A stretch of 64,000 bases of DNA from Stylophora pistillata (lineage: Eukaryota), in the NCBI RefSeq assembly GCF_002571385.2, contig NW_019217963.1, forward strand, positions 479,164 through 543,163, given 5' to 3'. Under the pieces are notes generated by a model. It saw only the letters and a program-made list of their open reading frames with translations. It ran no database searches and was not told the DNA's origin. This document shows positions 1,885 through 52,936 of this stretch, one piece after another (position 1 is the stretch's first letter; every line of letters starts with the position of its first letter). The position numbers and the translations under genes are program-made.

Positions 1885-4800
1885 CTAAAAGTGATCCATG
1901 GTTTGACATTAAAAATCACCGATGGTTTGACATTAAAAATCATTTATGGCGATGATAAAAAAATTGCAAATTTGAAGACCCGAGATATTAAACACGCGAT
2001 ACCCATATGAATTCAAATCCTATAACAAGTGATGAACATGTAATAACAACAACACATACAGGATATGTATCGAAAAATACACAGTCAAATAGTCGACTGG
2101 TTTTGCTGGTAAGTTCCATTGTGTATCTTGTGTAATGTTAATGTTTATCAAATTCACCTGAATTTTCTTGGTTCATAGAAATTCCTGCGAATGTCTTTCG
2201 TGCATTTTGAATTTTAAAAACTTCCAACTTTTTAAAATTCCGAAATAAACTGAAACAAGTTTCTTGAAATTCAAAATAAAGTTGAAAACACTTCAATCAA
2301 GAAATTCAATGCCCTATTTGCATGTTTGCCTATTGAAATACTGTCTCGCCAAAAACGCGAAATTAAGTTCTGCTAGGGTAATTAATTAATTCAATCATTC
2401 TTTTCACTTTTTCATTCATTTATTCCTTTTTCACCCTTTATCAATGCGCTGTTGTTGAGACCAGACATTCCTCTCGATTCCAACATTACTTCTTAAGGGG
2501 AAGATAAAATGCAGTCAAAAGGACTACAGCCGCTTTTCGTTCTTCATTGTTGGTAAAACATTTTCTTGAATCATTTTTAATCTAGTTTTGTTTTGTTTTC
2601 GTGTTTTAGTGATTATTTAGCCGAGTTCACCAATATTACTTGAGAAAATAACAAAGTGTTGTTTTTAGTTTATTCTTACAAGACTGTGTTTGGTTTTTTC
2701 CAACATCTCCAGCTGACAGCAAGGGCATTGTTTCATCTTCCGCAGGGAGTCTGTGCAATTAAAAGTGACAGCGCATCAATCTAACTCCGAGTGATGACCA
2801 TTAATGAAATATTTACGAGGTAAATTGTCTTGCAAACCAGATAATGCGCGGTTTTATGTGTTAGATCAAAACTTACTTCCTTTTAAATGTTCATTTGCGT
2901 ACCTTTTGGCTATTTCTTCAAGATACAAGGCTATCTCCTCCCAGGATTCCCTAGAGATGTACGGTCTAGCCGATGAGTAGATTGAAGCCACAGTATCAAC
3001 CACACTCTGAAGACCATCAACCAGTTGAAACAGTGTCTCTAAATCAAACAAGCCCAAAAAAATGAAGACGGGATAATCTGTCAATACATATCTCAAAAGG
3101 CTAAAGTTTTCTCATGTTGTCGAGGTTGATCAGCTTTTTTTGAGGTCTTTTTTTTTAAAACAAATTTAGCACTTTTTTATCAGGGAAGATTATGACAACG
3201 CAAGAATTTTACATATGACATAATAAAAAAGTTTCTCGTTAGAAAGGATAAATGTCGAGCTAAGTCTCGGTAAAAATGTTAAGTAAAAATGCTGAGCTGT
3301 GATCCCTCTCTCAAGAATAATCTCACCATATAACAATTTCACCATTGTTGTTGCCGACACGAAGGCTCACTCTTTTTTGCGAAACCAAACCAAACCAAAC
3401 CAAATGAGATATAACGAAACTAAAGGATGGATGCGGTATTTGTCTAAAAGTAAAGAGAACTTTCACTAGGATTTTGGCAGTAATCGCTAACTGATTATCC
3501 CGATTGTCAGTCATTTCGCAAAGAAAAATTGTTACTGTTTTCGTGTCACATATGATATAATATTATCAAAGATTTTGGCTTCCTCATATTAAGTATGTTT
3601 CGCAAGGTAATAATTTTGGAAGAAATACTATTTTGCGAAATGGACTATTTTCACCTTTCGGCGACGATGTCACAGTTTTCATGTCACGAAAATACGTTTA
3701 AACACTACATATAAGTATATTCCAGAAGATCTTTGTCACCTCTTATTTCTTAAACCGTACTGAATTATATTACAGAAAATAGTTATTTTAGGGAATTACT
3801 ATTTTGAGGGTCTCAGTAGGGTTAACCGATAGCCGTAAAGCAGTCAAAACATTTAGCCTTTAGGCGTAAAATTTGAAAATTTTTAAGTAGTAATCGTGCA
3901 AAAGTTAAATGTTTGGTAACAACTAAAAGCCATCACCTATTGAGAACCTCTTTTTGGCGGAATGGAACATTTTCACCTTCATTAACAATTTTGCTGTTCA
4001 CGTGTCACAGAAATACGTTTTAAGGGGATCCCTCCCCTGATTTCGCTTCGTTTCGTTTGGCCAAATAGAGTAAAGAGTAAACCCCAATGCCGGAAAAAAC
4101 ATTAGTGGAATTGTATTCTTGAGAGAGGGATCACAGATCAGCATTTTTACAAACATGTTCCTTTCCGTTCTGAATCATTCTCAGCTCTTTACAGACTATT
4201 CATCTTTCGGGAGAAAATTGTGAGGACAAGTGTTGCTTGAAATAGATGGAAATTTACCTATTTGATGATAATATTCGCTTGCTCTTTCTTCACTTCCCTG
4301 ACTCTCGTTACTGAAACTCTTGATTCGCTTTATAGTCTCCTCCAAAACCACGACAACATCGTTCACCGTTCGTTTAGGGTGCTTATTCTGCACATTATTC
4401 TTTGGATATTCCGGTCTCCTTTCCTTGTAAGTATATACCCCCTTTGCTACGGGATCACCGTACAGTGTGGTAAAGATGACGGAAACAGGTCCTGGCTTGT
4501 CACCACCTATTTCACGTGGAGGAATGAAAAAGCCATTGACGTCAAGACAAATCTTTACAATTTTCTCGTTACAAGCTGTCCTTAAATTGTTTGTTTAATC
4601 GTTGCATTTGGCTCACCTCCGGAATTATATGTTGACTTGACCATGAACAAGCTCTTCATTGATACACTAACAGGTAGGCATCATTAAAATTGGCACCAGT
4701 AGTGTTTCAATGCAACTTTTCTTTGTTAAACCACAATATTGTTACCCGAACTTTGGCACCAGTGGTTTCAATGCAACTTCTCTTTGTTAAACTGAAATAT

Positions 4801-7800
4801 TGATACTCGAACTTGGATTTGCTTCCTCCAGTTCAGTGGTGCACGTGTACAAAAGATTAGCTTTTCCTGGGTTATTGAAGACATTTGACTGAAGCTCAAC
4901 TTTGGCTTCAAAGAAACATGGAAATGGTAGAGACAAACTGAAGAAGTCTAAGCTGAAGGATCAGACGATTATGGAGGCTTTGAGAGCGGGGGTCAGGACG
5001 CAGAAAGACAGCACTCTATCAATAACTGAACGGGCCTACCGACTCGAAGTGGTCGAAGAGTTTTTTTTAAATTTTGTTGTTAAAAAATTTAACTGAAAAT
5101 CTGAAAAATGTAATATTCTATGTTTAAAAAAATCGGAAAAAAGTGAGCATTTTTATGTAGCCCACGAGTAGCATTATATTAGCACTTTTTTGGCAAAAAA
5201 CAAACACTGCTTTGAGCATCTAATGCTTTTTCTACGAGCACAATCGGTAAAAGCCTAGTTGCATTGTGATTCCATGAATTTTTAGCTAACATTTAATGAG
5301 GGAGGGGGGCTGTTAAGGATTTATAGTGAGGTAAAACTAGGAATGTTATTCTTCACATAGATAGAACTCTTCCGAAATGATGTGTCAACTCCTTTTGAAG
5401 CTGGTTGAAGGTTGTAGCTTTACTCCTACTATAAATGACTGACCATGAAAGGAAAATGGATGGGAATAGACATTGTACAAATCTGCGAGACGTTAAACCT
5501 TCTGACACCACCTCTCAGTGCGAAGTGCTGTTGAAGATCGATTACAAGTATTTTTAAACCAAGAGAGACAAAGGGATACTTACCAGGAATTTCATTTCCA
5601 AACATGCTAAGACCGTCCCTAGCTACTTTCACTTTCACCGCCGTATGTCCAAACGTTGCCCAACCAATTTCCATCGACTGTGGGAGTTCTATATCAACTT
5701 CTGCAGTGAATTTTCCACCGCCCTATTAAATGGAAAGAAATCGTTTGTCTCAAGACACTTTAAAAGGTCAATTTTCCGTGTCCCTTTGCCTGTTTACTTC
5801 GCTTAATTTTGATTTAGATGTTGGCATGCATCATTCTCATCCTCGAGTGAAAACTCTCTCTCTAGTTCCAAACTAGTAGACAGAAGAGAGGGGGTTTGAG
5901 AGAAGAGGGACCTTGTACACGGTAAGCATGTTGAAAGAAAACGTACTCTCCGGAATGTTATGCATAAAAAAGAACATGGTTAAAAACCTTTGTCTACGAC
6001 CATTTCAGGTAATTCTCAAATTTCCCCCTCTTAAAACCCCAGATTTCAACTTATCCTATGGATTTAGTGATGAACAATTATTCCATGAGCAACACATTTC
6101 CGTATAAGTGACGCAGAATATAATCTGATGACCGGAGTTGAATGAACCAATCAGAACACACCAAATGCAATATCTGGATTTGAAAATTTAATAATAGGGA
6201 ATATCCTTAAAATTGATTCAAAATTAATCACTGATTTGTTTAACATTGACCCCTTCATAAACTGAGGTGCACGGAAGAAGCAAACAATGAAGTTCGATTG
6301 TAAGGTAGTGTCAGGAGCGGGTAAGACGTGAAACGACCAAGGTTTCCTCATTAAGTTCATCGGCATCGGACGCCGTCGCACAAGCAAAATGGCTGCTCAG
6401 TCTTATTTACAAGGCATCAATCAACAAAATGTTGTCAGGCATTTTCGATACTTTGATTGATTGTGTAGATATCGGCATCTAAAGTTGCAGTAGCTAAATA
6501 TATGCGAGGCGCGTTGCGTGAATGGAAGCCACGGAACAAATATTCAAATACCAAAAATTTCCCGACACACTTTCATTCGTTATTATTCCAAGGATAATTT
6601 GGCAAAATTTGACGAAAATCGGTCTAATCTAAATACTAATTCGCTCAATGTAGTTGTATTCCTCCCAAAATCAAATGCGAGGCGATTATCTCGCCTACTT
6701 AAACCCCAAACCAATGGGACAATTTCCCGGGTAAAGTAACGCATTGCAGACACGTTTTTTTAATTTTTTTTTCAATCAGTGGAGCGTTGAGGAGAACGAC
6801 ATTATAACGAGTAAAGTTGCCAAAGGTAAAGGAAGAACCCGCATCAAAAATGGATAAACCGGAAAAGGTGCTGAAAAGCAAGAAAAAGAATCGACAGACA
6901 GCATTCAACATTACGATTAAGCCCCGGCGATTCGAGGCGATTGTTAATGTTTTTGTATCAAGGCTGGTACTTGCCTAAATAAAAGGAAACCTCGTTTTTA
7001 ACCTTGCGTATGACAAATTTTAGTTTGACGGCGACTTCTTTGTTCGAAATCTGGACGCCGTCGTAGAGCGCAGTAGCTTTCACTTTCACTTAGGATTTAA
7101 TGATAATAATAATATTAATAATAATAATAATAATAATAATGTCTTTATTCACCATTTCACTAAATGATAAGAATACAAATCTTTTAGAACAAGTAAGTGT
7201 AAGAAATTTTAAAAAGGTAAAAAGTAAGAATTAAAAATCTAGTACATAACAAAGCTAATTCCTATTTAAAAACTGAACGGTTAGTTAAATAGTTTTAAAA
7301 CGCATAGCGTTAATCTTAGGCTTAAAACAAGTTTCTTTCCTAAGATCGTAACTGGACGGTTTAACACGAGGCATAGTGGGTAAAACTGGATGTTCTTCAG
7401 CATTAGAAACTTTCTTGAAAATGTTACGGTCTTCCCTCTCTAAGAGATCGTAAACACTTACAGGCTCAGACGTGTATTTCCTTTTAAAAAAGCGGTCTAA
7501 CAAACACTGTACAGGTGTAAGATCGGACTCGGGTGCGGAGCAGACGGATAATGCGTGATCAATATTAAGTAGAACTATTGTATTAAAGAGAAGGTGCAGT
7601 TCTGATTGATTGCACCCCCCCTTTACCCTGTGTTCTAAGGATACGTAGGGATTTGTTAGCTTTGATAAGTTTATTCTTCAAGTGCACTGAAAATTTGCTA
7701 TCGCATTGAAAGGTGACCCTCAAAATCTCTACTTCATTACAGCTTACTATCATCCCGAGAGGTGAATAGAGATCGCGGTTGCCTCTCTTTTTGATCGCCA

Positions 7801-10800
7801 ACTCTTTACATTTGCCTGGATTGCAAGACATTCCATTTGTATTCGCCCAATATAAAAACTGTGACACTAACTGATCGGAGTGGTCTACCTCCTTCCATAC
7901 AGGAGCAATAATTGTCGAATCATCCGTGTACTTCAATAGCGCATTAAGATTATTGAGAAAGATGCTGAAAAGGTGAGGACCGCCAACGCTACCTTGAGTT
8001 GACCCTTTGTTAACCGGTTTCCAGTTGCACTCAAAGTTGTTGCAACATACCCTTTGTTTTCTATCCTTTAAAAAGTTTAAATACCAATTGGTAATATCTT
8101 AATTCAATGGCAACTCTTGTAATTTATTAGCGAGAAGTTCTAGGCCGGATCTATTGAGAAGTACATTTGGAACATTTTGAGCGCTATCTATTAAGATAGT
8201 GGAGGTTCCCTTAAGTTCTTATGATTCGAGACTAATAACGGATCAAAAGGCCAAAATATAACTACAAATTTGATGAACTTACCGTTAAGGGCCCCTCACT
8301 GGGATCCATTTTCGACTCACGAACTGATGTAGATTCTGGTTGCCCAATGGCCGTGTTATCTGTATGAAGATTAAACTTTATATCCCATATGAATATGTTA
8401 AATACGCAACGCAACCTTTTATCACACAATTGAACGAGTTGACCATAAAACTAATGCCAGAAGTGCAAGAGCTTATCGCGGTATCTTTAGTATGACCTAT
8501 CTCAACTGGTAACTTGTCTTGCCAGTTCACTAAAATGTATGTGTGTTATTGTTATTTCTATTATAATTATATTGTTATCATTATTATGACTATGATTATT
8601 TTTAGTATTATTATTATTATTATCAATAAAGATTTGGAAATGAAAAGACAAGCAAAAACCAACCCACTCTGAACGTGCAAAGCGATTCAGTTCGCGTAAA
8701 AGTATTTGTATAATCAGCTCCTAACATATTTATGCTAATTTAGTGTTACACCTTGCCGCAAATTTTGTAATTTTTATTTCTCCTTGACAATGGCGTCATG
8801 ATGACACCGAAACGTCGGTTTTTATCGTTGGTTTTTGCTTCTCTTTGCATTATTATTATTATTGCACTCAATAAAGCTCACCCTCTGAGCAAGCACCACT
8901 GTCAGTTTGTCCGGAAGAATCTGTAAGATCTTTTGTGACCTGACTTGACCGTAACTAAAACACGTTAAGGAAAAGGATAAGCCGGCAAGAACCGTTATCA
9001 CATTTTCTTATCCATTAGAAAGTGCGAGTAAAAATTTGCTGTTAGCTACATCATGAAATTCCGAAGGATAACCTAACGTACGAAAAATATTTTCAATTGA
9101 GCCATTTTGAAAACTCATTAAGCTGGCAGCTAAATAAATCTCTTGAAGCGATTAGTTTTGCATATAGACAAATTTCGCCATCTAATCTTTATTAGAATTA
9201 TTTATCTGTATAAATCTATATACTTCACTATGGTATGCAACTGTATTTTTGCATTCAAATCGTTACATCCGATCAAATCGTTTGATTAAAGAGAGCGTTA
9301 AAGTAAATGCTCCATTTAATTTGAACAACCCACCTTATTTTGTCCTCGATTGTCATTGGTCGATGATAAAAGCTTAAGTACCTTTTCATTTTTTCCAATC
9401 TGTTCCTCAAAGAGTCTGTCACCAACAAATGTGTCCAGGTCAAAGTCTTCAACTGAAAAATATGAGATGTCCGTCGATGAAATTCTACCTTACTTTTAGA
9501 TAAAGTAAAAGTTTACCTACATGATACATCGATAAAATTCGTGTCCATCGGACAGTTAATCGATGTAGAATACTAAGTACTAACATTCATCAAATCTTAT
9601 AGAATATCATCAGAAGCAGATTTACCTTCGGTGTCGTGAAAACTACTGAAATCTTCCTGAAAATTAGAGACAAAAAAGAGAAAGTCAAGGTTCGCATTAA
9701 GAGCTTTAATTTAATTACCCATGCTTATATGTCTCCGCATACAAGGAGTAGTCAGTGATGTGATTAGGGTATTCTCTGTAAGATTTTCCTTCCAAAACCA
9801 CCAGTTGTTTCAACAAGAAGTGTCATAAATATTTCGTAATGACACCTTAAAACTGTGTTTACTAAGAGAGGAAAAGGAACCAATTCAATCGGCCAGGAGC
9901 CGTGATGGGATCAACTCTTACTCATAAAAAAGGGCAATCATTTGTCTAAGGATGTGACGACCAGTCGTTGGTCAATGACTTGAAACTTAAGAGTTGTTTT
10001 CCTGGAGAATTGAATGGCAAGAATTATTTTTCTCGTATCGATTGTGATTAGACGTTGAGACTTGATTCGAGTGATAGCACTCTCGTGATTGAGCCGCGAC
10101 AAGTGGACGCGCAGTTATCCACTCCGTCTATTTTCTTCCGTTACTGCACCGTCAACAAAGTATTAATCAAGATCTAAATGTTTTTGGATCTTTTTGGTTG
10201 AATCCTGAATCTCTTACGATGAGCAATGTGTTTCTATGCGAGTTCTCTTTGGTTTTGGATACCAAGTTGAACCGACGCCATATTGTATTTACCGACAGTA
10301 ATTTGCCTCACCGAAGAAGATATCTTGCTCTCAAAGTGTGTTACTACAACAACTCTGACGCTAGTTATCAGCTGCAAAGGTTATTGCTAAGTGGTGATAC
10401 CGGAGTTTCGTTAAATCCTGGTCCTCCAGACTATAGCTACAACGACGTCGATGAGCAACGTACTCAAAACTCACGATCTTCCATCTATGCTTGTAACGGT
10501 AATTCCTTCCTTGAACTTCCGTATAAATGCTTAAATATTTTCCATTACAATATTTCCTCATTGACAAACAAGCTCGACAAAATAAAGCTACTTTTATCCT
10601 CCCTTTCCAATCAACGAAAAAACAGACCTAATTTAATCCCTGGAATTGCCGAAACGTTTCTAAACGATTCGGGGTCTGATGCTTCTCTTGCCGTGAAAAG
10701 ATATACCTTGTTCCGCGCCGATAGATTGGCTAACAAAGGAGGTGGTCTTCTTGTGTATGTTCCTGAACATTTGCCTATATCAAGAGGGAATGACCTCAAA

Positions 10801-29750: not shown

Positions 29751-30050
29751 CCAGTAATGTGTCAGCCACTTTCTTAAGTTCTATATTAATCAAGGCCTCT
29801 GCGAGCTTTCCAACTGTTGCTTCTCGTCCCTTTCGATGAGTCCATCTTGCTAGGACCGCAATGCAACATTCTTTGGGGCACCTCTCCTTTTCAATTTGGA
29901 TTCCTTCAATGGCAGTTTCGTTGAAGCCTAAGACTCGTGCTAGGTCTCTCCGCTTTACTGGCCCAATCAGCTCAGGCAGTCGGTGATTGTGGATAAGATT
30001 TTCAGTCATCATTAGAGTCGGGTCGAGCGTGTTATTGTTTTTGGAGATAT
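29751..30050 (-). CDS. Death domain exon of gene C
   Basis: LPELIGPVKRRDLARVLGFNETAIEGIQIEKERCPKECCIAVLARWTHRKGREATVGKLAEALINIELKKVADTL fits the death-domain pattern (LARxLGF...I..I...L..W...G..ATV..L..AL). 300 nt, phase 1-1. Confidence 0.9.
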
Positions 30051-30600
30051 CTGATAGTATTACAATGAGCTTATGTTAGAGTCTTAAAACATTTGACCGT
30101 TGGCAATTTTTTTCATAGACCGTGAAGAGTATAAAAATACTACTGAAACTGAGTATTGTTAGAACAACGGTTTTAGTTACACACGATACCTTAATTCAAT
30201 GTTTATTTCATCATTTCGGCTTGTAACGCAATACAAGAGGAAGCTTGTAGAAGTAGCAAACGACGGCCCCTGCAGGAGCCTATCTGATATGAAATTTACT
30301 TTTCATTTTCACTTTAGCATTTCCTGCTTTGAGCAGTAATTTTTTTTCACGTGAAGTTTGAGAATTTTGAGAATTAATTCCCCTTACTGCCATTTATTGA
30401 CGCACGACGTCAATTCAAAAACATATTTGGGTTTTATAAGAAATATAACCAAATATAGAAGCTTCAAAGCGTTTTAAATTAAACCCACTAGAACGGCACA
30501 CAACTATCTGATCTGTGTATAGCATTATCACGTTCTCATCACGCTAGAAAACGTGGATACCTTATTCATTAATGGCCCTATGCATTGATGATCAGCACGT

Positions 30601-34835: not shown

Positions 34836-37019
34836 GGATGCACTTGTTTTGGTACACCCCCGGACAATCCAAAGTATTTTATAGGTTGTGAATGAGGCCC
34901 TGTGTGTCGATTTCCTTTCATTAGTGTCAAGTTTCTCCTCTAAACAAAACCACGTCGAGTTGAAAAAAAAATACGTTTTTATACTCTTAGTTTTTCTCTT
35001 TCTCAGTTTTTAAAAAAAAAAAAACTGTGTTATTTGGGACTACGAGAGCCGAGGGGACGGTTCATGTATTATTTATTGATAAATACACAGACAGATCGAA
35101 GGCGAAATTAAGTATTTACAGTTATATGATAAAACTAATAAAGTTTTAATTCTAATGGTATATGTAATTATACCAAGGATAATGATATAGAAATACTAGT
35201 CTTCTGAGTAAACTGGTGGTAAAAACGTAGACTATAAAGATAAATATTCTTTTAAACACGAGCTCATTAAAAATGTGTTTCTGAAACGATCTGTTTTCCA
35301 TTTTAGGACGATAATTAGACCCTGATTAACGCAAGGTTTATCCATTATTATACATTATTTATACTTTATTAAGATCCAACTGCTAACATTGTACTCGCAT
35401 AAAAAGAAGCAGAAAATACAAACATTTGATGACAAAAAAAAAATTAAGTTGTAGCGCAGGAGATAAACGCCTTGCACTATAGAAGAACCTTGCAAAAATC
35501 GTTTTCTACAGCAGCAAACACCAAAGAGATTAAAATCAGCCAAAGAACGGTGAAAATTGCTAAAATGCCACTTAATTGTGAAAAACACTTCGCTGATCTC
35601 AAGGGATGCTTCGAAAATTGGTATGTTCAGACATAAAAGAGAGGAAGAATTAAATTGAACTAGGGGCTACGAGGTTATGGCATCTTTTGACATATCTACC
35701 TTTGCAAAATGCAAAGAATAATTCATAAACTAGCACATTTTCGTAGTCAGCAACTTAACGATTCTCTAGATTGGCAATGATCTTGGAAATAAATGTAAAA
35801 AATATATAGAAAAAAAAATTATAAGAATAAAAACCATGCACGTAAACAAAGCCAACTAGCCGGTAATTTCAGCTGGCACAATGTTTCTCAGCCGTTGACA
35901 ATCCTCCTCTAGTCGGATGCTTCGGCTTTCCTTGCCAAGAGACGAATAACTACCTTTGTGTTTAGGCCTAGCTGCTTCAGAGAAGCCTGGTTTAGCTTTA
36001 GATTATTTTGTACTTGTGACGCGAGTTCTCTGGCGTTACTTTTCCCCATCAAACGCAATTTCAGAATGCCTCCAAGAAGAGAAACCTCGATACATTCTAA
36101 TAAATGAAAATGGATACATGTGAGCAGGTGCCAAGTACCAAAGCATTAAAATGCTTTATATTTTATGAACTAAGTAAAAGTTACAAGCATTTTCAAAACT
36201 AATGGGGTAACATATAGAGTAAAGAAGTGGTTAGGCTGCTTGCGTAGAAATTATCCAGGAATGCTGTTTAGAAACCTCATGCTGCTTAGGTATGACATTT
36301 TTTATCTGGGCGCGACAACTGCTTCTCTCTAACAAAACTGTAGCGTTGCACAAGTAGAAAAACAAAAAAACAAACCAACAAGCATTGACCTTCATCCCCA
36401 TTTATTTCCTTGGCTTCATTTTTTTTTTTTTAATTCAATTATATTTTTTTGTTAAGCCAAGCTGCAATAACTGCAGACCACCCACAATGGCCAACCAACC
36501 CATGATATGAGCAACTTCTTAATCTAATCTGTTATTTTATCATCGATGCAACTACTCTGTCTTAAACCCCGTAAGTACTCGTCATACATACATCAAAGTG
36601 TACAAGTATGTGTATGAAATAATTCGTATCCAAGTTAATTCCACTGAGAAAATTGTAGCGCGAAAGGGGATTTGAAAAAACTCTCATACCTTTCACATAG
36701 CCGAGTGAGTTCCGATATTTCTGCCATCAGTCAACTGGAGAATCTTAATTGAGAAAGAAGAGAAATTTATTCAGGATAATTACAATTTGCGTTCGAGGAA
36801 TATGTTTGTGAATTTGAGGAGTCACTTAAAGCATGATAATCATTTTTTTATGTTGTCCTTAACGTTTTGGCAAACATTATATCACAGCATCCAAAAACTT
36901 TGGCGCCTGCATAACAGGATCGATAAATGGCTAATTAAGTACACTCACCCGAATTCCTGGGGCAGTCTAGGTGGCACATTCCTCGACTGGATCTTTGCAG
37001 GTCTTTGCAGTAGCATTTT

Positions 37020-40000
37020 TTATGTTACTGCTGTCGCTGTTTTGCTCAAACTCAAGCCAGAGGTGCATACATTCTGCTTGATTGCAACCTTGAACCTTCT
37101 GAGTGCAAACGAGTCTGACTGAGTTTTCTTCACAGCAGGCAGGGCGGATGAAACCTCTTTCATGTGATAAATTCTCCAGCCAGGAGAACTCAACTCACAT
37201 GGAGAGAAGTGCCAATTCAAGCTGTTTACGTACTTTCTGAGCAAATGAAACCCCAGTGGAGTTGCCCCATCCGTGGCTCCTTTGAGTTGGATAGAGAACA
37301 AATTCCATAGACGGTGCACGGAATACATGCCTGGAAAAACATATTATATTGGAAGTGAGAAAAACTGTCATGAAATGAGATAGTTATACGGCCCACAAAA
37401 GTTTTTATCACTTTTCATCTAGAATTGGGACACTTAAATAACGAGAGCCACATCAGGGATAAATGTCGTATTCTTTTGTGCTTCAGTCAAGATTTCAAGA
37501 CCTTTATACTCGTGGTAAACTAGGGCCGATATCAAATTTTCTTAAGTAGGCATTACTCAGTGAAAGCCTATGACCAGTGCTGTGAAAAAAACCCAAACAA
37601 AGACAACAACAACAAAAACAGACAACAGAAGGGGGAAAGTGACCATATACAGAAACTTACTTTCGAGTAATTCTTCCAATTTACCCATATGATCAGTCTT
37701 AATCCTCTGAAGCTTCCTCTGCGTCAGATGTTTCTGCATCTCCAAAATAACCCTCCTCTACTGGTTGATCTTCCACCACTTGAGTTACCACTAAAAAGTG
37801 ACACGGTCGCCAAAACATTAATTTAAAAGAGAAATGTAATCGTTTGTTCCAGGATGTAATCAATTGGGATATGGATCGAGACGTTTCGACTGCATACTGC
37901 TAATGTTCTCCAAGTACTGTTGCTGGTTTCAATGCTGTAGGAAGCTTTCTACGCTATCGCGGGCTAAGATGGTAAAAGTGTCGTCTAAGTAGCGTTTCCA
38001 GATCCTGGGTATGTAGGGTGATGATGTTACTGCTTGTTCTTCAAAACTCTCCCTGTGGAGGTTAGTGATAACTGTAGAAACCGGGCTTCCAACAGCTGTG
38101 CCTTCATCTAGTTCGTAAATTGATCCATTGTACTGGAAGTAACAGATTAAAATCGACGACGAAAAAACACAACAGTAGCAGAGCCGTGCGGCAGCAGACC
38201 ACAGAGGGATCCTGCCCGAAAGATGCACCAATCACAGCTGTGGAGTTCTATCCAATCACGGCTAAGCACACAACATACGGCTGACTCGGTCGACCTCAGC
38301 GCCTGAGGAAGACTAGCAGCATGCAGTCGAAACGGAGCGATCCACATCCCAGGTGACCACATCGTGAGAGAAACGATTACATTTCGCTTTTAATTATTTA
38401 CCACGATGAGTGATCTCAACCTATTTTAAGATAAAAATATTCATGTTCAACAAAGAATCAATGCATCATGGTCCAAATTTGTCGAGACCAAGATTTCCTA
38501 TCACGCAACTTAAGTAGATGGTTCTCCAGTTGAATTGCAATTTTTTAAGCCCCCATTTATGACAAAAGTTGAAAAAATCGACATTAGACTTACTACTACA
38601 GCTTTCTCGTAAATGTATTGAACGATAATGAGAATATGAGCCCTTTACTACATAAGGTTAACCAGGAGAAGGCACTTTCGATGGCGATCAACTTTAGAGG
38701 TACATATGTCATGATCAGATTAAACATGCCCGACAAAAGAGACCGTTTACTATTTTTTTAAGTATTTGTACATTAGTCATTAATTCAAGTCTTAAAAAAG
38801 AGAGGCAGAGTGAAGAGAGCGCTTCACTTTCCATTACGAACATACTCCTTTCCACATCAAAATAAATCGGTTTGATCATGATAGCGTTTTTTTTTTTTTC
38901 AGACTGCCAACAGACATTCTGCTGATTCAGGGAATCGCAATTGAAGCCCCTTGTAAAGAAACTAACCCAGCCATGATTTTCAAGCACTTGCGAAAATAAG
39001 AAATAATTACAAAAGAAAAGCTTGGGCGTTATTCTGACGATCCCAGGTTTCATGGTTTGACTCTACGAAACTCTCAATCTAATCATTTCTTGTCATAAAA
39101 GTTTAGAGGTCATTGCTTCAAACAAGCTGAAAATTCTTACCTAACTCTTGGTTATTTTCCTCTGCAAATTCGTCACTTTCGTAGTCAGTCACACTCCTGA
39201 GACGCTTTACAGACTCTTCGACTTCATCTAGAAAGCGTTTAGCGCGCGTAGTCTGCTCGGTTGTGGAATTTTCAAATTTTTTGTAAGTAAATATAGCCTT
39301 TGCCACATAATCACCGTTCAGTGTGGTGAAAGTAACGGTAACAGGTCCTGGCGCGTCACCACCTATTTTGTACAAGTAAATGATACAATATAACATGTGA
39401 TAGATTTTCATTATTACCTGTAATATATGACTTCAGTAGTCGCGCTGAGTTCTTGAAAAAGGAAATTTGTTTTGTAGTGAGTAGTGAGTGTTCCCATATA
39501 GCTAAATACATAAAATGAAGAGCCGCAACCTGTTACGGGACTGGGCAGGAAGCCCTAAACCACTTCTGGTAAAAATATTGTACATCTCGGCAAGAATTTA
39601 CACCCTCTTGTATCACTACTGAGTATACCTCAGGCTGAAAAAGAATCAGCCTACGCAGTTGAAGGTCACTCCTCAGCATAATCAGACAAAAAATGCAAGA
39701 TACTTACGAGGAATTTCCTCTCCAAACATAGCCAGACCATCCCTCGTTACCCTGACTTTCTCGGACCTATTACCAAATGATGCCCAAGCTGTCGCCATTA
39801 AGGGAGGAAGCTCTTCATCTATTTCTGCACGGAAGATTCCTCCGCCCTAGTTGAAAAATGGGGAAAATAAACCCGAAATGTTAATATTCCAAATCGTACT
39901 TCCAATGCGCAAAAAAAAAATGGTTACGGAGAGCTTGGTAGGCGCTAATGTCGATTATTTCAAGTTTTAAATACAAGCATGAACCAGAAAACGCAAAAAG

Positions 40001-43000
40001 AAAAAAAAACTCGTGGCATCCATACATTTTACCGCGTAAAAGGATGACACATTAAATCACGCCTTTCGCAGCTTGGAGCGAAATAGTTTGGTATTTCAGT
40101 GGTGTCTCAAAAATAAAAAGAACAATGCATGGCCGCCTAAAGATAAGAAATTTCTCATCATGAGTTGAACAACATTTCTTCCGTTCGCTGCGCTCATGAT
40201 CACTCGTGAGATATTTTCCTACACTCGAAATCATGCTAGTTGATACGTGATGCAGTATAATGACGGATGCTAGGATTTTGCTAGATTTCCATGGATGAAT
40301 TACAGAAACTTAAACGCGAATTTTACCAATGCCAAAAAATTTAGAAAAAACTTTTAGGCAAAAGCGGAAGAAATGATAAAGTAGGTGCTTCTTTGTCGCC
40401 TCTCAGTACATTTTAATAGAAACAAGGAGGAGTTCTTTTCTAAATGGTACATCTAATATTACTTCCAATTTCCGCTCATTGCAAGTTGGATAAACAAATA
40501 ACGGCAAAGGACAAATACAAAATCTGGATCTACCTGCAAAGGCCCCTCGCTGGGTTTCATTCTCGCTTCTTGAACGCGCAGAGGTTTTGGTCGGTTGAGA
40601 GTTTCAGCCTGACACGTGCTCGCTGTATAAAAATTTAAAAAAAAGCAAAACTAAACGACTGTAATCTGAGACGAATTTTAAGACGCAAAGCAAGTTTTAT
40701 CCCAAATTAAATCTGCCAATTAGTCACTCTAAACCCATGTACCCCTATCGCCGAGTACATAGCTGAGCATTTACGGGGAAAATTCACGGGCGAAAGGGCC
40801 GCGGTTATCGGGGACTTCTACAGCTATTTCATGTCATTCAGGGTGCGGGGCATTAGCACCAATGCAAGCACCAGTCTAATGCTCCGCTATCTCCCGACCC
40901 CGGGGGTGCAGGGATTTATATTGACTAGTCCACTACATACTAGTAAGAATATATCGAATCTAGTCGTGACGAGTTTTACTATTTCGAGATGCTACTTCAG
41001 AAGACGATTGAGTAAGAGATGGGATGCTAGTCTTTCGCATGTTACTCACTTTACCCGGTGATCATATTTTTATGGCCTTTTTAGGTCTCTTTACCCGTAG
41101 TCAAGCGCACTTTTAACTGGACTACCACAATCCAGATCTACACCGTGTAATTTTACTTTTCCATAATTATATACGTTATATACTTTTTTATTCAAGTGAG
41201 CTGTCAATTGCAATAACGAAGAGTCTACTTCGGATTTCGATGTTCTGTCCTAGCCCAGTGTTTTATGGAAAGGTTTTTCAGTTAACTTAGTTAATTTTAG
41301 TTGTTTGTTTCATTTTCCCGTAATTACGGAAATCAAGCCTAACAAGTTTTACTCCGTCAAACTCACCTTCAGACGAAATACCGCTGTCAGATTGTCCGGA
41401 AGAATCTCTTACGTAGTTTGGTAAACGATCTTTCCCCATCAACTACAGAGCAGGGGAGAAAAACACAGACATATTTACTTTGAGCAATTATAGACGCCCG
41501 TGCACCTGCGTCGACATACAAAATAAACGACGAAGATCTTGAAATCAACTTAAAAGCAAATTTTCGAAGTCGTAAGATGACAAGCTTATGATAAATAAGT
41601 TTGTTGAGCTCTAACCTTGACTATAGACTACGAGCAGTCCCTCCTTTTCGGCGAAGTCCGTCACGCGAGTCAAAAAAAAAATCGGTGAAAATAATTGCTG
41701 TTAATGCGCAGTAAGGAACTCTTAGAACTCTCTAAAAGAGCCCCCTCGGCACGCTAACAACAGGTTTTTTTCACTGTTTTTTTTTTTTTTTTTGGCCTGC
41801 GCGATGGACTTTGCCGAAAAGGAGGGATTTCTCATAGTCTATGACTGTTACAATGCCTGCTGTGCGGCCTTAATTCGCCGTAACTTTGGGCGACTTTGGG
41901 CGATTTAAGGCGACTTAAGACGACTTTAGCGAAAGTGGCAGAAAAAACATTGCGACTTTGGGCGATTTAAGGCAACTTAAGGCAACTTAAGGTGACTTAA
42001 AGTGATTTTATTTGACTGAAGTGATAAAATCAAAGTTAGCAACAGTCTCTCCATAAACCTTAAAAATATTTACAGAATCCCTTGCAATAAACACCATAGT
42101 CAATTTGATTACTTTTGTGTGCTCATAAGTCACCATAGTCTAAAACATCCAGATTTCAAACCAATTTAGCTAAAAATGATTGGACAGAATTACCACAACA
42201 GTTGTTATTAAATCATACAGTCAAAGCTAGTGAATAAGTGAGTGGCAACACTAGACACCAAAACTGGACTAATGTGACACCGCGGAAATTCGTTTTTTGG
42301 GGCACGTACAGTATTTTACTGGTCAGCGGACACCTTGACGAAACCAGAAAATGCCGATAACTTTTACAGTGTTTTCGCCATGAGTCTAATCGACAGCGTA
42401 AAAAGGCAAAACTTAGGAAGAATACTGCAAACTTAGCTTTGAAACTCGGCTCACCTTTTGGATAGTTATTATGCTGAGTTATATAATTTGCCAAAGCCGA
42501 ACTGAAGTTGCAAACGATTTGAAATTGTTGTTTTCCGCAGGCGGCTCCGTGGCAACTAAATTCTGTTTATAAAAGAGCTTTTGCACTAGGGCTAAAAATT
42601 ACACGGTTTTTGAATGGCTGAGGCGGTGATCCAAGAACTTTGCATGACCGGGTTTGTAAATCAGTGGCTTGACTCATATAAATCGGCATGTCAACGGCAT
42701 TTTGATCAGATCCGTCGAGAAGACAAAATATGGGTACTCGTGTAAGTAGCACGGCCATCCTATCCCCACTCGTTATTGCCGAACGTTGTATCAAGTTGGC
42801 CAAAACAGTTCTACGAATAAACCTGGAACACACTGCCGTAACATTTGTACGATTGAAGCCCCCAAAGTACAAGAACTGGCCTCAAAAAGAGAAAGATTAA
42901 ACCGAGGTACGTGTCAAGTACAAAATGTCCATTTTAATGATAATAAATGAAGTTTTCACTTTCCACCTTAGTTTGTAATTTTTTTTCTGAGCAATAATTT

Positions 43001-46000: not shown

Positions 46001-49000
46001 GGCATAAGGCGACTTTAGGCGACTTAAGGCAACTTTAGGCGACTTAAGGCAACTTAAGGCCCCAGAGTAGGCCTTGTTACAACTATACTCACTCTCAAAA
46101 AACATAATTGATCGATCAAAGTTCAACCAGAGAAAAACATTAAGCTTATACCCTCACTACTCAGTCAAACGAATAACATGCATTTAACCGAAGAATTACT
46201 AAAAAAGTTGGATTGATAAGACTGACTGAATCGATTGCTTCTCAAGGAGCAATGATACAACTAATAGAGTTTAATATACCTTGTTACGCTTCCTGTTTGG
46301 CTTTGTCACTCCACACCCTTGCGTTGTTCCGTGGGCGTTGAATATTCCATTCTGAGAAACGGTTTCTATATCAAATAATCAATATCATTCATTGTCACTC
46401 GGTTTGTTGCACTGTCCAAAAGGCCAATCCAAAATTCCCCCAGGTGGAATTTAGTGACACAAATAATTATCTGAACACCACTCAAAATCCTTAGGACACA
46501 AAAATTTAAAATTATATGGAAGACAACTTTAAGGGCTTTAAGGTTTTAGAAAGGAACTCTAAACGTGAAACATGAAAATTGCCAACCAACCAATGATTAC
46601 AATATTTCTGGAGCTTTGACGTGTATGTTACATTTTAAATTTGTGTTAAAAAGCAGATAGTCAAGCTTCCCTGGCCCACCTTCTAACGAACTGAACGCAC
46701 TGTCATCGCTTTGAAAGGCATCAGTGGAGGATGAGGGAATCTGACTTTGTAGCTAGTAAAAAAAGAAAGAGACCAGTCGTTTTTAAAAGAGCCTCAACTG
46801 TGCCAAATATGCAGGATGTTCATTTCATTGCAAATGAAAACGAGTCAAAGAGTGCATAGGACAATTTTGAAAGATATGAGCGAGGTTTTGTCCAAAGTAA
46901 GAACGTCAATAGACTCATTAACCTAATCTAGATTATAATTATCTGGATGCATCTAGATAACGCACATGTCTTTTCGCATTCACACCATTTCATTAATCAC
47001 ACCACTGCACCAAATAAAAGGTCGTTAAGAATAACCCTATTTAAGGTGGCTGAACACAGTTTTCGCGCGCGCTTTTTCTGATGTAATTAAGCGCGCACAT
47101 GGATTGTAAAAAACAAACATGCCGTCAATAGAGCGGTCATTTTATTTACTCAACACTTACCCGCACTATCTGTGCTATTTTTCTCTATAGTTGGCGCAGT
47201 GTATTGAGGGCTTTAATCTTTTATTACAAAGATATGTTAGAAAATTTAACGGTGCAAAGAACCTAGCAATTCTCAGCTTTTTCGTCGTTACCGAAAGAAA
47301 CCGGTTAAATGTAGCGCATGCGTAGTAAGTAAAAAAATTGCGATTGAATGGAAAATTGCTTTCTCGGAAATAAGCCTATTTCTTGAAAACCACACATTAG
47401 AATTTCACGAAATATGGCACAAAAATACTTTAGGAAATAAGTAACTGGAGTATTGAAAAAAAATGATCTTAAACAAAGGAAATTCTAGAAAATCGAGTGA
47501 AACAAAATGGTGTTAACTTGTGAGTATCGTTACAATCTCCTTGCATACAAATTATAAAGAAAATCTAATGACTAGATTTTCTACAAAGTAACGAAACCGA
47601 TTTTAATTGCCTATTTATATCTATTCATGTCACCATGGCAAAGGCACATACGTCACCTTAACTATCGAAAAAACAAAGTTTATGATATTAACTTGCTTGC
47701 TGCCAGTTTTGGCGACCGACAGATCAAGGGTTTTAGAGAAAATGGTGAGAGAAACAAAGGTATCAAAAACTGTGTTCAGTCACCTTAATTGAACAACTTA
47801 CCTCACTCTGTTCTTGATTTCCATTGATCCAAAATGAGGCCCATGGTATCGTTTCAAATGGTTCAGTATGCTCTCCAAAGTCCATAGCCTCGACGATGTT
47901 TTCCAAATCGAAGTCTTAAAAATGAATTTAAGTCGTGAGTCTATGAGGACTGCGTCTATAGTTTACGTTTTAGAACAATAACGGCTGTTACTCGGGCATC
48001 GAAGGGTGGACAATTCTTCAGCTAAATTTCTATGGCGTGGATTATATTGTCCCATTACTTAACATCATTCTCCAGCGACTAAATTTCCCAATTTAAACCC
48101 TACACTAACAAACAAGGGTTATTGATAGAGCATACCTAAACTTTAAATTCGTTAATTTTCCCATGTAATAAAAAGCAGAATTACCTGGTAAGAAGGGTAC
48201 GTTCAGGTTATCATCCTAGATATAAAACAGAGAAGAAAGAAAATGGTTAGGTGCTTCAATCAACAGCATAAAAAAGCAGGAATGGTGCTTCCTTAAATTA
48301 TACCACAGCAGCCACTGAAAAAAATGTTTTCCAAATATTTACAAAATTTTGCTTGAAGGACTGAACACATAAATTTTCGAACCGAGTAAATTTCTGTCTA
48401 TTTCTGATTTAAAATTCATAATTTTTTTTTCCTCTAATGGAGATTGTTCCAGGCTCTATGGTCTTGCATACGAAAATAATGAATGAGTTAATGCAACCAA
48501 AGCAGTACTCTACTCATACCCAACTCAAATTTTCAATTTGCATTCAAAAATACCCGCTGAAATTTTCTTAGGTCCTCCAACAAAGAGTAACATTCAGTGA
48601 AAGTGTCTTGTTAAGAAAGATTGCTACAGAGACTAACGGGAGGGCTGGACTTTGGACTTTGGACTTTGGACTTTGAACTTTGATGGACTATTTACGCTTG
48701 TCTTCTTTCTAGGTGAAATTCCCAGTATGAAAAAAAAAATTGAACATCGTGGCAGAATTCACTCACCAGCTTATTACTGGTCGTAAAATTTCCCCATTCC
48801 CATGGATCCCATTGTTCCCATTCCACTGAATTTTCTAGGAAACGATTAATTTTCAAAGAGTTAGCACCCTTTAAACAACAGGAGACGCAAGCTCAAGAAA
48901 TGCCATCTCTAAGACTAATTTTGACGTTTCACTCTAAAGCGATTATTTGATAGGAAAATGGCAACCACCTCTGTGAAACTCGGCCACAAGAAGCTAAATT

Positions 49001-52000
49001 TATTTGCAAATTTAGCAAAAATTAGTTCTAGCTACCACATAATTTTACGTCAGGATCAGAGAATGCATGTCTTCGCAATAAAATTTCGGCACTTTGCGAA
49101 TTCCTTTGACAGGATAGTTGGGAAAAAAACACCCGATCACAGTTCTTTTTTTTTTCTATTTTTTTGCGCCTTGACATATTTCACATTCAGATGTTATTCA
49201 AATCGCGTCTTCCCTTATTGGAGGATTCTTACAGACACCGATCAACCAATTTCCATTTCATTACCCTTTTTTTTTTCTTTTTTTTTTTTTTGCGGTACCG
49301 TATGGCGAAGAATCGATCGAACATGATCATGTTTTGAAATTTTTCACTTTAAGTGTTATCATATTGGAAACAAAACCTCATTAAAAATTAACTTTAATTT
49401 TAATGAGGTTTTGTTTTCAATATGATAATGAATGATACTTTCTTAGCTTCGACAATCAAAATTTCGCAAAAAACTTTAAATGTTTGAATGTTTTAAATGA
49501 AAAGAAAATCTGAGTGTATCCATACCTTTTATGGTACCAGAGGAAATGATACAAATTGAAAAAATTAACTTGCCTGTTGGGTTTGTTGCGTTCATAAATG
49601 TCCCTGTTGTCGTGGATTGCCGTGTTTGCATCAATGACACCTTTAACAAACATGGAAAGATGAAATTAAATCTGCTCCTTTAATCAAAGAAACCAATTAG
49701 ATCCCTGTAACTCAGTAGAGTTATGAATCGTGTAATCCAAGACCTAATTACAAGAGACCGAGGGCACCATTGTAACCGATATAAATGTCGTCTCTGCACT
49801 AAATGGGGTTACTGTAATTTCGCTTGTTTACAGGGAGAATTCTCTATTAAACACATATGAAAAATAAATGATAGGTTCAATGCGTGCTTTATCATTCTAA
49901 AATATCACTTACATTCCTTCCATTCTTAGAGTTGCGACAGCAGCTGGCCATGGTGGACGACGAATAACCTTAAATGAAAATATATTTATGCTTTACATGT
50001 AAACTTCAGGTTCGACACGAGGAGTTTTGTAACAACTAGAGAAAGTATAAAAATTATTGAAAAAATTCGTGCTCGAGTACCTTGTAAAGATAAAGGAGGT
50101 CCTCCTGCTGCAGGTAACACCAGGTTTGAGACCGGCTGATTTTGAATTATGAAAAAGTTATTGAAAATTAATTACTTTAATAATTTAAAACCAGTTGTTT
50201 TTGGCTTTTAAATATCCATCTAAATGTAATACATTTTAGCACAATAAATTTGCTTCAAGCATGTTCCAGTTTGTCGCAAATTTTATTTGTATTTACGAAT
50301 TTTATTGCCGGTGACAAGTCATCTTAGACTTTTCGTAGGCTTTGTGTGGGAATGCATTGATGGTAGAGATAGGGTTACTTTTTCCAGCAGGATAATCTTT
50401 TTGACCTGTGCAAGGCGCGCCATGCTGGCTTAAAATCTTCAATCAAAAACTTTCCTAATCCAAAGAGACCAGCTAGCAATACTCAAGGTCACTTTTAAAA
50501 CAAACAAACAGCGTATGTCACCTCCAGTCGTCTACATTGCTTTTTTAAGTGAAATTTGCAGAAAAATAACAATATCCAGACTAAGTCATAAGAGCAGAAT
50601 TGATTGCACAATTTCCCAGAAGATGACTAATACGTACCTTGAGTTGAGGTTCGGATGAGCATTTGAGGTGAGATGCTGGATTATCTTGGTTGTTCAAGAA
50701 ACTGTAATCCACTGAATTTCCTTCAAGAAAATTAAATTTGATTTAAATGTTCATACGAGTTAGTAATGGTATAACCAAAAGGTGAGATAACTTTTGGAAA
50801 AATGTCGTTTATGTCAACTTTTGACCGTTTATGTTCACACGGAATAAATCTTACCTGTTAATTCATTAGAATCTAAAGAAGAAGTTTTTGAATCCACTCC
50901 TGCAACGAGAGGCTGGGCCACAAAACCCTTTTAAAGAAAAAAGGGAGGAAGGTTAGGAATTTGTTTATACAAAAAATTACGTTTTTACGCGTTCGATTAC
51001 TAAAAGGAAGACTAGTTTAAGTAGAATCCACTCCAATTTTTCCATGGAATTAATATATAATTTTCAGCCTCTTCTATGCCTCACTTTTTCAGAGCAAATG
51101 TTGATTTCAATCCAAAATGCCAAGCACAACTTTAAATAGGAATCATTTTTTAATCATTCGCAGGGAATAAAAGGAACCTTTTATTGTAAAAAATCTCTTA
51201 CTTGTCGATTGTGTCCACTATTGGAGAAACATTTATTCCATGGATGACCTGAAATTAAATCTCATTTGTAGGGAAAAGAGAACTTTTGTTATTGGGATAT
51301 GTCTTACCGGTTGATTATCTCCACTGTTGTAGAGATCCTCATCCCATAAAAAACCTGAAATTAAATACGTTACGTATGAAACATTGTCTTACGGTACCGT
51401 GTGGCGAATAACTAAACAAACATCATCGTCTCTTGTAATTTTTTTCCAATCAATCTTTGTTTTAAATGGGAGGAAAATCAGTGGATTCATTAATTCCTTT
51501 CATGGTACCAGAGAAACTGATACAAATTGAAAAAATTAACTTGCCTGTTGGGTTTCTTGTGTTTATAGATGTGACCGTTGTCACAGATTGCTGTGTTTGG
51601 CTCAATGACACCTTTAACAAAAAGGGAAAGATTACATTAAATGTACTCCTTTAATCAAAGAAACCAATTAGATTATCTCAGTGGTGTTATGAATGTTGTA
51701 ATTCAAGTTCAAATTTTAAGAAACTGGTAACAAGCATCATTGTAACCGATATAAATGGCGTCTTTGCTCTAAATGGGAATACTGTAATTTTGCCTATTTA
51801 CAAGGAGAGATCTTCAGTCAACACATGTGAAAAAATAAATGATAGGTTCATTGCGTGCGTTATCTTTAAACTATCACTTACAATCTGGCCATTTTTGGAG
51901 TTCTGAAAGAAGCTGGTGGACGACGAATGACCTTAAATAAAACATGTAAGCTTCAGGTTTGACACAAGGAGTTCAGTAACAACCAGAGAAGACATAAAAA

Positions 52001-52936
52001 TTTTAAAGAAAACTGTACCTTGTAAAGATGAGGGAGGTCCTGCTGTTGATGAAACCAGGTTTAGGACCGGCTAATTTTGAAATATGAAAAAAATGTTGTT
52101 AATGAGTTCATTTCTATTCAAATCCAGTTGGACTTGTACTCTAGCATGTAATCCAACTTTTCGTAAAGTTTTGGAAATTGCGCCAGAACATTTTACTAAT
52201 GGTCTTTGCGATTTATTTTGTCACACCAATCACCAATTTTTCATTTAAAAAATCTATTCTGTATCATCTAGCATTAGGTCTCGATTAAGAAAACTGTGGA
52301 TGTTCCCACATTTTACGAATTGCTTAGGTCAGAGTGCCATACCAGGAAGTAACGAAAGCGAAAGGTCACTAATTCCGAGGTGATAAGCTTCAAAATCATG
52401 CATTCGTATGTTTTATATATATATTTATGGATATATCTTGTGTACCTTGTCCTCCATGACTAAATACAACGCCGATTGGCCTTTTATGTATCTTTTAATC
52501 ATTCGTCCATCCCAAACACGGTGTTCACCATGAAAATTTAATAAATCACTGGTCTGTCCTTCTCGTGATGCACACGAAAACCTAAATAATAATGAGAAGA
52601 AAAAGTATTCCCATAAGGGATTCTTTAAATTTCGCAGTTCCGTTCTCTATAAATCAAAGCCATGAGAGTCATGCAGCGCTGGTTTTACAATCTATTAATG
52701 AATGCAAGTGGTTTCTAAGAAACGTCAAGTACTTACTTCACTTACCTTTTATTTGACAAGATAGGGCGAAACAAGTTTTCAAACAAGCCTCTTACATCAC
52801 CATCTGTCATGTCTTGACGAAATGTCACACGACGCTTGTACCGTTCTCCTTTCCTCAATCCTGCTATTTCTGATAGGGTCAATGTCCTCGTTTCATCTTC
52901 GGTGAGAAGATAAACATTTTTTTGGAATCCTTCCAT
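37020..52936 (-). CDS. Gene B: paralog of gene A; 19-exon model, 641 aa (novel N-domain, S/T linker, DFDLE, DSGISS, IPT/TIG)
   Basis: Exons 52746-52936, 52446-52581, 52019-52070, 51882-51931, 51545-51611 (GC donor), 51308-51354 or 51202-51248, 50855-50927, 50638-50720, 50081-50135, 49913-49968, 49574-49640 (GC donor), 48767-48834, 48185-48215, 47802-47914, 41367-41442, 40534-40622, 39708-39846, 39141-39362, 37020-37330. They sum to 1926 nt with no internal stop. 3' end uncertain: alternative donors near 37198 and 36948. Confidence 0.8.
37818..38433. mobile_element. Penelope-like element remnant with inverted pLTRs and RT fragment
   Basis: Minus strand YFQYNGSIYE..EGTAVGSPVS..ITNL...WKRYLDDTF is a PLE RT. 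Inverted arms at ~37820-37919/38296-38395. CTGAGGA...GAAA core at 38303-38332. Confidence 0.85.
39141..39362 (-). CDS. Gene B exon, IPT/TIG C-terminal half
   Basis: GDAPGPVTVTFTTLNGDYVAKAIFTYKKFENSTTEQTTRAKRF; the PGxVxV...FTY pattern is an IPT signature. Confidence 0.85.
39708..39846 (-). CDS. Gene B exon, IPT/TIG core
   Basis: GGGIFRAEIDEELPPLMATAWASFGNRSEKVRVTRDGLAMFGEEIP. Confidence 0.85.
40534..40622 (-). CDS. Gene B exon, IPT start (RMKPSEGPLQ|GGG)
   Basis: 89 nt, phase 1-0, canonical splice sites. Confidence 0.8.
41367..41442 (-). CDS. Gene B exon with DSGISS degron-like motif
   Basis: LMGKDRLPNYVRDSSGQSDSGISSE; 76 nt, phase 0-1. Confidence 0.8.
41624..41841. mobile_element. MITE (TA-GACTAC termini)
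   Basis: TAGACTACGAGCAGTCCCTCCTTTTCGGCGAAGTCC is inverted at GGACTTTGCCGAAAAGGAGGGATTTCTCATAGTCTA. Confidence 0.8.
41851..46076. mobile_element. ~4.2-kb non-autonomous TIR transposon with 10-bp subterminal repeat arrays
   Basis: CAATGCCTGCTGTGCGGCCTTAA vs right reverse complement CAAGGCCTACTCTGGGGCCTTAA. GGCGACTTAA arrays at ~41880-42005 and ~45950-46060. No transposase ORF. Confidence 0.7.
47045..47784. mobile_element. TTAA-site Kolobok-like MITE
   Basis: TTAA|GGTGGCTGAACACAGTTTT ... AAAACTGTGTTCAGTCACC|TTAA. Confidence 0.85.
48647..48681. repeat. (GGACTTT)n microsatellite
   Basis: 5 copies. Confidence 0.9.
49290..52095 (-). repeat. Intragenic tandem duplication in gene B (49290-50165 vs 51390-52095)
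   Basis: Co-linear exon and intron similarity across three duplicated exons. Confidence 0.9.
49357..49427. repeat. ~30-bp-arm hairpin
   Basis: TATCATATTGGAAACAAAACCTCATTAAAA / TTTTAATGAGGTTTTGTTTTCAATATGATA. Confidence 0.85.

Follow-up and report, generated by a model that had tools for sequence, protein, structure and literature searches.

A candidate beta-TrCP-type phosphodegron in tandemly duplicated, adaptor-like genes of the coral Stylophora pistillata

Two tandem genes of Stylophora pistillata end corresponding exons with a similar serine-rich peptide, which raises the question of whether this peptide is kept for what it does in the protein and, if so, which function it may serve. Herein, we investigated this locus in a window of 64 kb, the whole stretch of DNA that was analysed. 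Judging from the sequence, the shared 13-residue block, a short linear motif, is likely to be under purifying selection, and we lean slightly towards reading it as a beta-TrCP-type phosphodegron. The motif suggests that the coral protein may be switched off by the machinery that controls NF-kB inhibitors in animals.

Self-comparison of the window revealed a two-gene unit duplicated in tandem on the minus strand, in which a death-domain/coiled-coil gene is followed by the gene of interest. Gene B is LOC111331841, to which a search with one exon gave a 100% match, and its tandem paralog, gene A, corresponds to LOC111331818 (Table 1). RNA runs that contain the stretch carry the label coral metagenome or that of the organism itself. 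The 21 coding exons of gene B (52936 to 37699, minus strand) have canonical splice sites and reproduce the 621-residue protein exactly. The RefSeq protein of gene A (P0008) starts one exon after the motif exon, so that exon A is absent from it. A modelled 9-exon chain from 16637 to 4258 (minus strand), which runs through the motif exon, is open over 354 codons with 0 stops; on this gene model, which lies outside P0008 at that point, exon A would be part of the mRNA.

Table 1. Positions of the motif exons and of the surrounding features of genes A and B in the window.
Feature	Position	Strand	Source
Gene B candidate degron exon, 76 nt, phase 0 to 1, residues 417-441 of LOC111331841	41367..41442	-	RefSeq P0001; Logan P0004, P0005
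Conserved 13-residue block DSSGQSDSGISSE	41368..41406	-	
DSGISS, canonical beta-TrCP-type degron match, residues 435-440	41371..41388	-	
Gene A homologous exon, 73 nt, phase 0 to 1, ends DSSGQTDSGACSE	8882..8954	-	
DSGACS, gene A degron match	8886..8903	-	
Gene A inferred start exon and ubiquitin-like domain exons	14661..16637 (16637-16625; 15385-15118, 14802-14661)	-	own model, not in P0008
Gene A, two short acidic linker exons	9382..9656 (9656-9626, 9452-9382)	-	
Gene A TIG/IPT and helix exons	4258..8359 (8359-8283, 5722-5584, 4506-4258)	-	agree with P0008 (LOC111331818)
Gene B, first of two exons for the ubiquitin-like domain	52746..52936	-	
Gene B ubiquitin-like domain, second exon	52446..52581	-	
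Gene B disordered linker, 12 short exons, phases alternating 0-1 / 1-0, internal repeat of a three-exon block	47802..52070	-	
Gene B Ser/Asp-rich exon farther upstream, containing DSAFSS (residues 380-385) as a second degron-like site	46680..46752	-	
Gene B exon ending in a basic patch (NLS-like); source of the lysines 19-26 residues upstream of the candidate degron	46280..46365	-	
Gene B exon running into the TIG/IPT domain	40534..40622	-	
Gene B TIG/IPT domain, middle exon	39708..39846	-	
Gene B end of TIG and subsequent helix (DBB-like)	39141..39362	-	
Gene B final coding exon, covering the acidic tail (GYFGDAETS motif) and the stop	37699..37790	-	

Gene limits are uncertain, since gene model P0003 fuses an upstream coiled-coil exon to gene B and the Pocillopora meandrina B-like model P0068 has a death-domain C-terminus. 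The latter is 51% identical to the death domain at 29755-30009 (minus strand), a match that means either that gene prediction joined two neighbours whose order is conserved or that an adaptor ending in a death domain really exists. The coiled-coil exons at 25762-26217 and 61057-61626 (minus strand) are paralogous (64% identical), and the copy near 25.8 kb carries an in-frame stop at the position where the other has Gln. Compared with the 1040-residue paralog P0006, gene B looks C-terminally truncated, ending after the acidic tail (35891-37699, minus strand): remnants of P0006 residues 849-970, with a stop, lie at 37311-36937 and those of residues 985-1040 at 36097-35891, and no match to residues 494-848 was found anywhere in the window. 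LINE-type retroelement remnants with reverse-transcriptase-like frames, judged by eye, occur at 10093-13031 (plus), 7285-8098 (minus) and 30603-31637 (plus), and Pfam matched a LINE endonuclease at 10096-11433. The first of these remnants lies in the gene A intron upstream of the motif exon, beside an assembly gap whose run of N begins at 13689. A repeat of 1.4 kb plus 0.45 kb (about 80% identity) is common to 20240-22110 and 30170-33598 and is likely another mobile element. When Pfam was run on single exons, only the death domain of the neighbour gene and the LINE endonuclease scored above the cut-off.

The exons of A and B that carry the motif are both in frame, have AG..GT ends and terminate in DSSGQ(S/T)DSGxxSE. 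A six-frame search of the whole window for DSGxxS returned only two matches, one in each gene; the peptides and coordinates reported earlier were confirmed: on the minus strand, DSGISS begins with position 41388 and DSGACS with position 8903. Exon B is spliced to both of its neighbours in two Logan-assembly proteins (P0004, P0005) and is included in all four members of the P0001 protein cluster. In shuffled linkers of four proteins, one DSGxxS arose by chance at a rate of 1.2-2.8%. A relaxed degron pattern was found in 71-86% of shuffled linkers, and relaxed matches were excluded from the support. The earlier note had called the exon a micro-exon, a label that had to be dropped: 76 nt is ordinary for gene B, whose 19 internal exons have a median length of 73 nt; 12 of them do not exceed 76 nt, and none falls to 30 nt or below. 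Published abstracts give limits of 27, 30 or at most 51 nt for microexons. Since neither 76 nor 73 nt is a multiple of three, skipping of the motif exon alone would shift the frame.

The gene B protein consists of a ubiquitin-like domain, a long disordered linker, the motif, a TIG domain with a helix, and an acidic tail. An alignment-based model built from 30 rows gave two confident regions, a domain at residues 1-110 and a beta-sandwich at 456-545; the stretch from 111 to about 455 was disordered, and the sandwich was followed by a helix at 550-575. The sandwich is predicted to be a TIG/IPT domain, since Foldseek matched it to EBF3, NF-kB dimerisation domains and CAMTA1; structure comparison gave plexin, CAMTA1, EBF3 and the BCAP DBB domain at Z 10.0-11.8. 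The N-terminal domain matched ubiquitin-like and Ras-binding folds at Z 6-7 only, rated middling by the tool. In the linker, a three-exon block is repeated at 52070-51545 and 50135-49574 (minus strand; 76% over 718 nt), and this repeat, together with the alternation of phases 0-1 and 1-0 in all linker exons, indicates that the linker grows by exon-pair duplication. Two acidic-hydrophobic stretches of linker exon, at 9382-9656 in A and 47802-47914 in B (both minus strand), have DFDL in common, and they presumably resemble acidic activation-domain patterns. These acidic exons, taken with the basic patch at 46280-46300, leave room for a possible nuclear role.

A full HMMER search yielded 62 relatives, the named ones coming from Stylophora, Pocillopora, Desmophyllum, Orbicella, Oculina, Montipora and Nematostella; the family sample is incomplete, since other homolog searches scored the best 8000 candidates, and no member from Acropora, Porites or Seriatopora was seen in it. 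Every relative of sufficient length has the N-terminal domain and most have the TIG domain, and the C-terminal domains differ (kinase, ApoL and death, with weak LRR, TPR or Roc matches). The Pfam DBB domain (PF14545) was found in 0/20 proteins scanned, and a PDB sequence search with two family profiles returned no BCAP chain and no meaningful match. An ankyrin-like segment is absent from B; a conserved helical segment with no Pfam Ank match is present in P0081, P0024, P0083, P0030 and P0022. For a Desmophyllum relative with a helical segment after TIG, DBB/BANK1 clusters were among the first ESM Atlas matches (0.85-0.87), which we treat as a lead only. In the Nematostella relative P0022, the ubiquitin-like domain seemingly occurs again at the C-terminus. 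An acidic tail motif, approximately GY(F/L)GD(A/V/T)E(T/I/K)S, occurs once in B (37699-37790, minus strand) and twice in A (about 1620-1890, minus strand); it is also found in Pocillopora, Desmophyllum and Montipora relatives, in the last as YFADVETS, and is more widely kept than the DSGxxS block. A literature search on six gene/protein identifiers and on the family and motif, run outside subscription journals and supplements, found no paper, and the coral family is apparently undescribed; the motif class is textbook material.

To judge the conservation of the block, the two paralogs were compared segment by segment. A and B share 10/13 residues in the block, which is thereby as well kept as the folded domain (TIG core, 53/82). 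Identity was 0/11 in the N-terminal half of the exon, 4/17 in the next exon before the domain and 14/47 in the part after the TIG core (Fisher p for block against flank 0.0002, 0.009 and 0.003, the block boundary having been set after seeing the data). For the N-terminal halves, the earlier description of otherwise divergent paralogs is apt, but it does not extend to the proteins throughout, given the TIG core. Against two Pocillopora proteins, the block of B was again the best-kept segment (11/13 and 13/13), compared with 4/12 and 5/12 for the N-terminal half and 61/82 and 58/82 for the TIG core.

DSGxxS is present in 5/5 pocilloporid copies, namely A, B, the third Stylophora paralog P0002, and P0068 and P0082 of Pocillopora; these carriers are related to one another and so are not independent. 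Nine of the 13 block columns are invariant among them. The two x columns hold A/I/N and C/P/S, and the other variable columns K/Q and S/T. By hand calculation, four variable columns among 13 would all fall outside the four degron columns with a probability of 0.18. This pattern is what a degron would predict, though DSSG and the final E are fixed to the same degree as the degron residues themselves. The selective retention claimed by the earlier note is supported on several counts: the block outdoes its flanks, DSG and the second Ser are invariant while the x positions vary, and synonymous change equals that of the TIG core. Of two metagenome scans for relatives, one gave 439 pattern matches, 0 of them confirmed, and the other, with a degenerate exon pattern, gave 0 matches.

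Beyond the pocilloporids the picture changes. Variation of the serines across orthologs had been named as evidence against a degron; they are constant within Pocilloporidae but not outside it, where strict DSGxx[ST] occurred in the linker of 1/8 distant family members (Oculina DSGFET; P 0.14). The wider pattern DSGxx[STDE] was found in 2/8 distant linkers (Oculina DSGFET and Montipora DSGWQD), against 0.25 expected (P 0.02). From these eight linkers P0021 was omitted as a close paralog of P0081, as were P0024 and P0083, which have no linker. Alignment of the Oculina motif reached P 0.002 in 1/41 scans and was not recovered by BLASTP. In Montipora foliosa P0074, the DSGWQD segment is duplicated.

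An unlikely alternative, which nevertheless fares best among the rivals, is that the block is a phospho-regulated or docking motif and no degron, its unit being [ST]-[DS]-S-G-hydrophobic-x-x-E at a fixed distance before TIG. Such a motif would regulate dimerisation, localisation or partner binding, and DSGxxS would be a chance reading in this clade. S-G-x-x-x-E lies 24-25 residues before the TIG proline in 7/7 proteins measured, which include P0012 (a distant Stylophora protein) and P0021 and P0081 (Desmophyllum). The latter three have SSG(L/I)GGE at the same distance as in B, without the degron Asp and second Ser. The invariance of DSSG and E also fits, as does an NLS-like basic patch directly before the exon in B and P0002, but the patch is absent from P0068. 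Moreover, the positional homology of SSG(L/I)GGE is ambiguous, since a second alignment pairs the P0012/P0021 segment with the upstream exon of gene B, and beta-TrCP, in view of its described plasticity (PMC13097077), may still bind segments that start with SSG and finish acidic.

The favoured reading, a phosphodegron, makes a defined sequence of events conceivable, in which kinase, ligase and outcome are all inferred. A signal-activated kinase would phosphorylate both serines of DSGxxS, the single anthozoan IKK-like kinase being the first candidate and GSK3 after priming the second. SCF-beta-TrCP would then bind the phosphorylated motif and ubiquitinate lysines 8-26 residues upstream, and the proteasome would remove the cytosolic adaptor, which, like BCAP, probably dimerises via its TIG-helix unit. 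The invariant upstream SSG-x-(S/T)-D may supply extra phosphosites or an overlapping second, non-canonical degron with a common Asp.

Several features of the protein are consistent with these events. Beta-TrCP is conserved across animals, and its substrates follow a rule on the spacing of acceptor lysines upstream of the motif. Lysines occur 8-26 residues upstream in 5/5 pocilloporid copies (B at -15, -19, -22 and -26; A at -10, -18 and -21; Pocillopora at -8 and at -15 or -22). The motif lies in predicted disorder, with pLDDT block means of 45-50 at residues 421-450 and no secondary structure, and the flanking domains have pLDDT of about 90. GSK3 priming would need the Thr at +4. A, B and P0002 have this Thr, counted from the second Ser, and would thus be suited to it, but the Ala in both Pocillopora proteins counts against it. 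Beta-TrCP reportedly binds DpSGXXpS and accepts polar residues as x, Ala in position 3 and Glu in position 6 (PMC13097077); the degron is also given as DpSGxxpS/T (PMC11371828). Within cnidarians, an anemone IKK is reported to drive serine-dependent, proteasome-dependent processing of NF-kB (PMC5700166), and a similar degron has been predicted in Hydra YAP (PMC8526868).

A second degron-like site lies upstream. DSA(F/L)SS is present in the upstream exon of B, P0002 and P0068 and is close to the WEE1-type degron, which has Ala at position 3 (PMC13097077). Whether the exon 46752-46680 is an old duplicate of the degron exon appears evenly balanced from sequence comparison. Pairwise peptide similarity between the two was significant (P 0.001-0.003, three controls null), and this exon was the best linker match in 9/9 scans, with P under 0.05 in only two of the nine. 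On the other side, a control pair also scored at the DNA level (P 0.004), the partner exons did not align (P 0.55), and the duplicate reading is weakened by the fact that every linker exon alternates the same phases.

The residues just before DSSG raise a further possibility, which the earlier note had left aside, namely a caspase cut behind either the first Asp of DSSG or that of DSG. Such a cut would separate the ubiquitin-like N-terminal part from TIG and the C-terminal part, as in Relish-type processing. Caspases prefer a small residue after Asp. Together with the residues preceding it, the invariant D-S reads DLTD in A and, in both Pocillopora proteins, DKSD (DxxD in 3/5), Oculina has DTSD-S and Montipora SEVD-S, and a death-domain gene adjoins both A and B. 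Corals are reported to have DXXDases and VXXDases (PMC7586219), but B has YVRD and P0002 has YIRD (YxxD in 2/5), and a P4 Tyr fits neither of these specificities. Given also that a cleavage site needs neither the distal Ser nor the Glu and that Asp-Ser is common in the linker, we regard a caspase site as the meaning of the block as rather improbable; it is compatible with a degron, the two being not mutually exclusive.

Ranking just after it is the reading that the block has no function at the protein level and is similarity left over from tandem duplication, a short tract of gene conversion, or an element for splicing at the 3' end of the exon. A DNA-level cause would be in line with the BLASTN match of 8866-8922 to 41351-41407 (57 nt, 79%), which extends into the intron, with the identity of the first 15 nt of the block between A and B, and with intron positions 7-20 after the motif-exon donor, which match at 9/14 compared with 3-6/14 at five other donors. 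Synonymous differences between A and B, however, are 3/10 in the block and 14/49 in the TIG core, and this equality argues against a recent DNA copy and against any excess of DNA identity. The retention of the block against both Pocillopora proteins and the location of amino-acid changes at x positions also speak against it. In a neutral simulation at the measured four-fold-site difference (14/43), P was 0.016 for at least 10 identical residues and 0.03 for a kept DSGxxS; with neutral divergence taken from the bottom of its 95% interval, the values were 0.25 and 0.16, no longer significant. On balance, the peptide block is very probably under selection. The least probable of the readings considered would make the block a dual site and the switch of an undescribed hexacorallian family of modular immune adaptors, in which a ubiquitin-like domain would take the place of the TIR of BCAP/BANK, the TIG-helix unit would dimerise and the C-terminal effectors (kinase, ApoL, LRR-like, TPR-like, death domain, Roc) would be interchangeable: IKK-type phosphorylation would lead to beta-TrCP-dependent destruction or partial processing and a caspase cut at the adjacent Asp would remove the inhibitory N-terminal half, p100-like and Relish-like control being combined in one 13-residue element, DSSG-x-(S/T)-DSGxxSE.

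DSGxxS degrons are common and well understood, and the motif alone is unsurprising. If it works as a phosphodegron, it would be the first regulatory handle on a coral protein family without a Pfam match and would tie this family to the IKK/beta-TrCP axis, which is implicated already in the symbiosis and bleaching of cnidarians. For coral immunity, the family itself, with its ubiquitin-like domain, TIG-helix unit and variable effector, may be of more use as a lead.

Among known systems, neural microexons are comparable in that a short exon carries a linear motif, but their limits of 27-51 nt contrast with 76 nt here, an exon of frame-breaking length and of a size typical of gene B. The canonical beta-TrCP phosphodegrons of IkB-alpha, beta-catenin and claspin share with the coral motif the DSGxxS spacing, the predicted disorder, the upstream lysines and nearby extra serines. 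They differ in that the coral motif is known from its sequence and is strict only in Pocilloporidae among the proteins seen, and in that it is preceded by an invariant DSSG, which the consensus does not need. As in NF-kB p100/p105, Relish and IkB, an IPT/TIG domain and a degron-like serine motif occur in one chain; unlike them, the coral model has no Rel DNA-binding domain, and its motif is N-terminal to the IPT domain rather than after ankyrin repeats.

The closest anatomical likeness is to BCAP, BANK1 and Dof (DBB), in which a TIG fold is followed by a helix, as in the gene B protein. The BCAP DBB structure 6sws aligned over 107/113 residues, the helix included (Z 10.4, rmsd 5.0), a match tied with the TIG domains of CAMTA1, EBF and plexin (Z 10-11.8). 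BCAP has three helices after TIG, whereas the gene B model has one; these adaptors have a TIR domain, whereas the coral protein has an N-terminal ubiquitin-like domain; B and its close relatives lack the ankyrin-like segment and a Pfam DBB match, and the C-termini of the relatives vary. A canonical cnidarian Dof with a detectable DBB domain has been described separately (PMC7260276). TIG plus helices is reported to form the dimerisation unit of BCAP (PMC7128310), and by analogy the coral adaptor may dimerise through its TIG and helix. By the anatomy of its model, then, the gene B protein resembles a BCAP/BANK/Dof-type adaptor without TIR, a likeness that stops short of assigning it to the DBB family.
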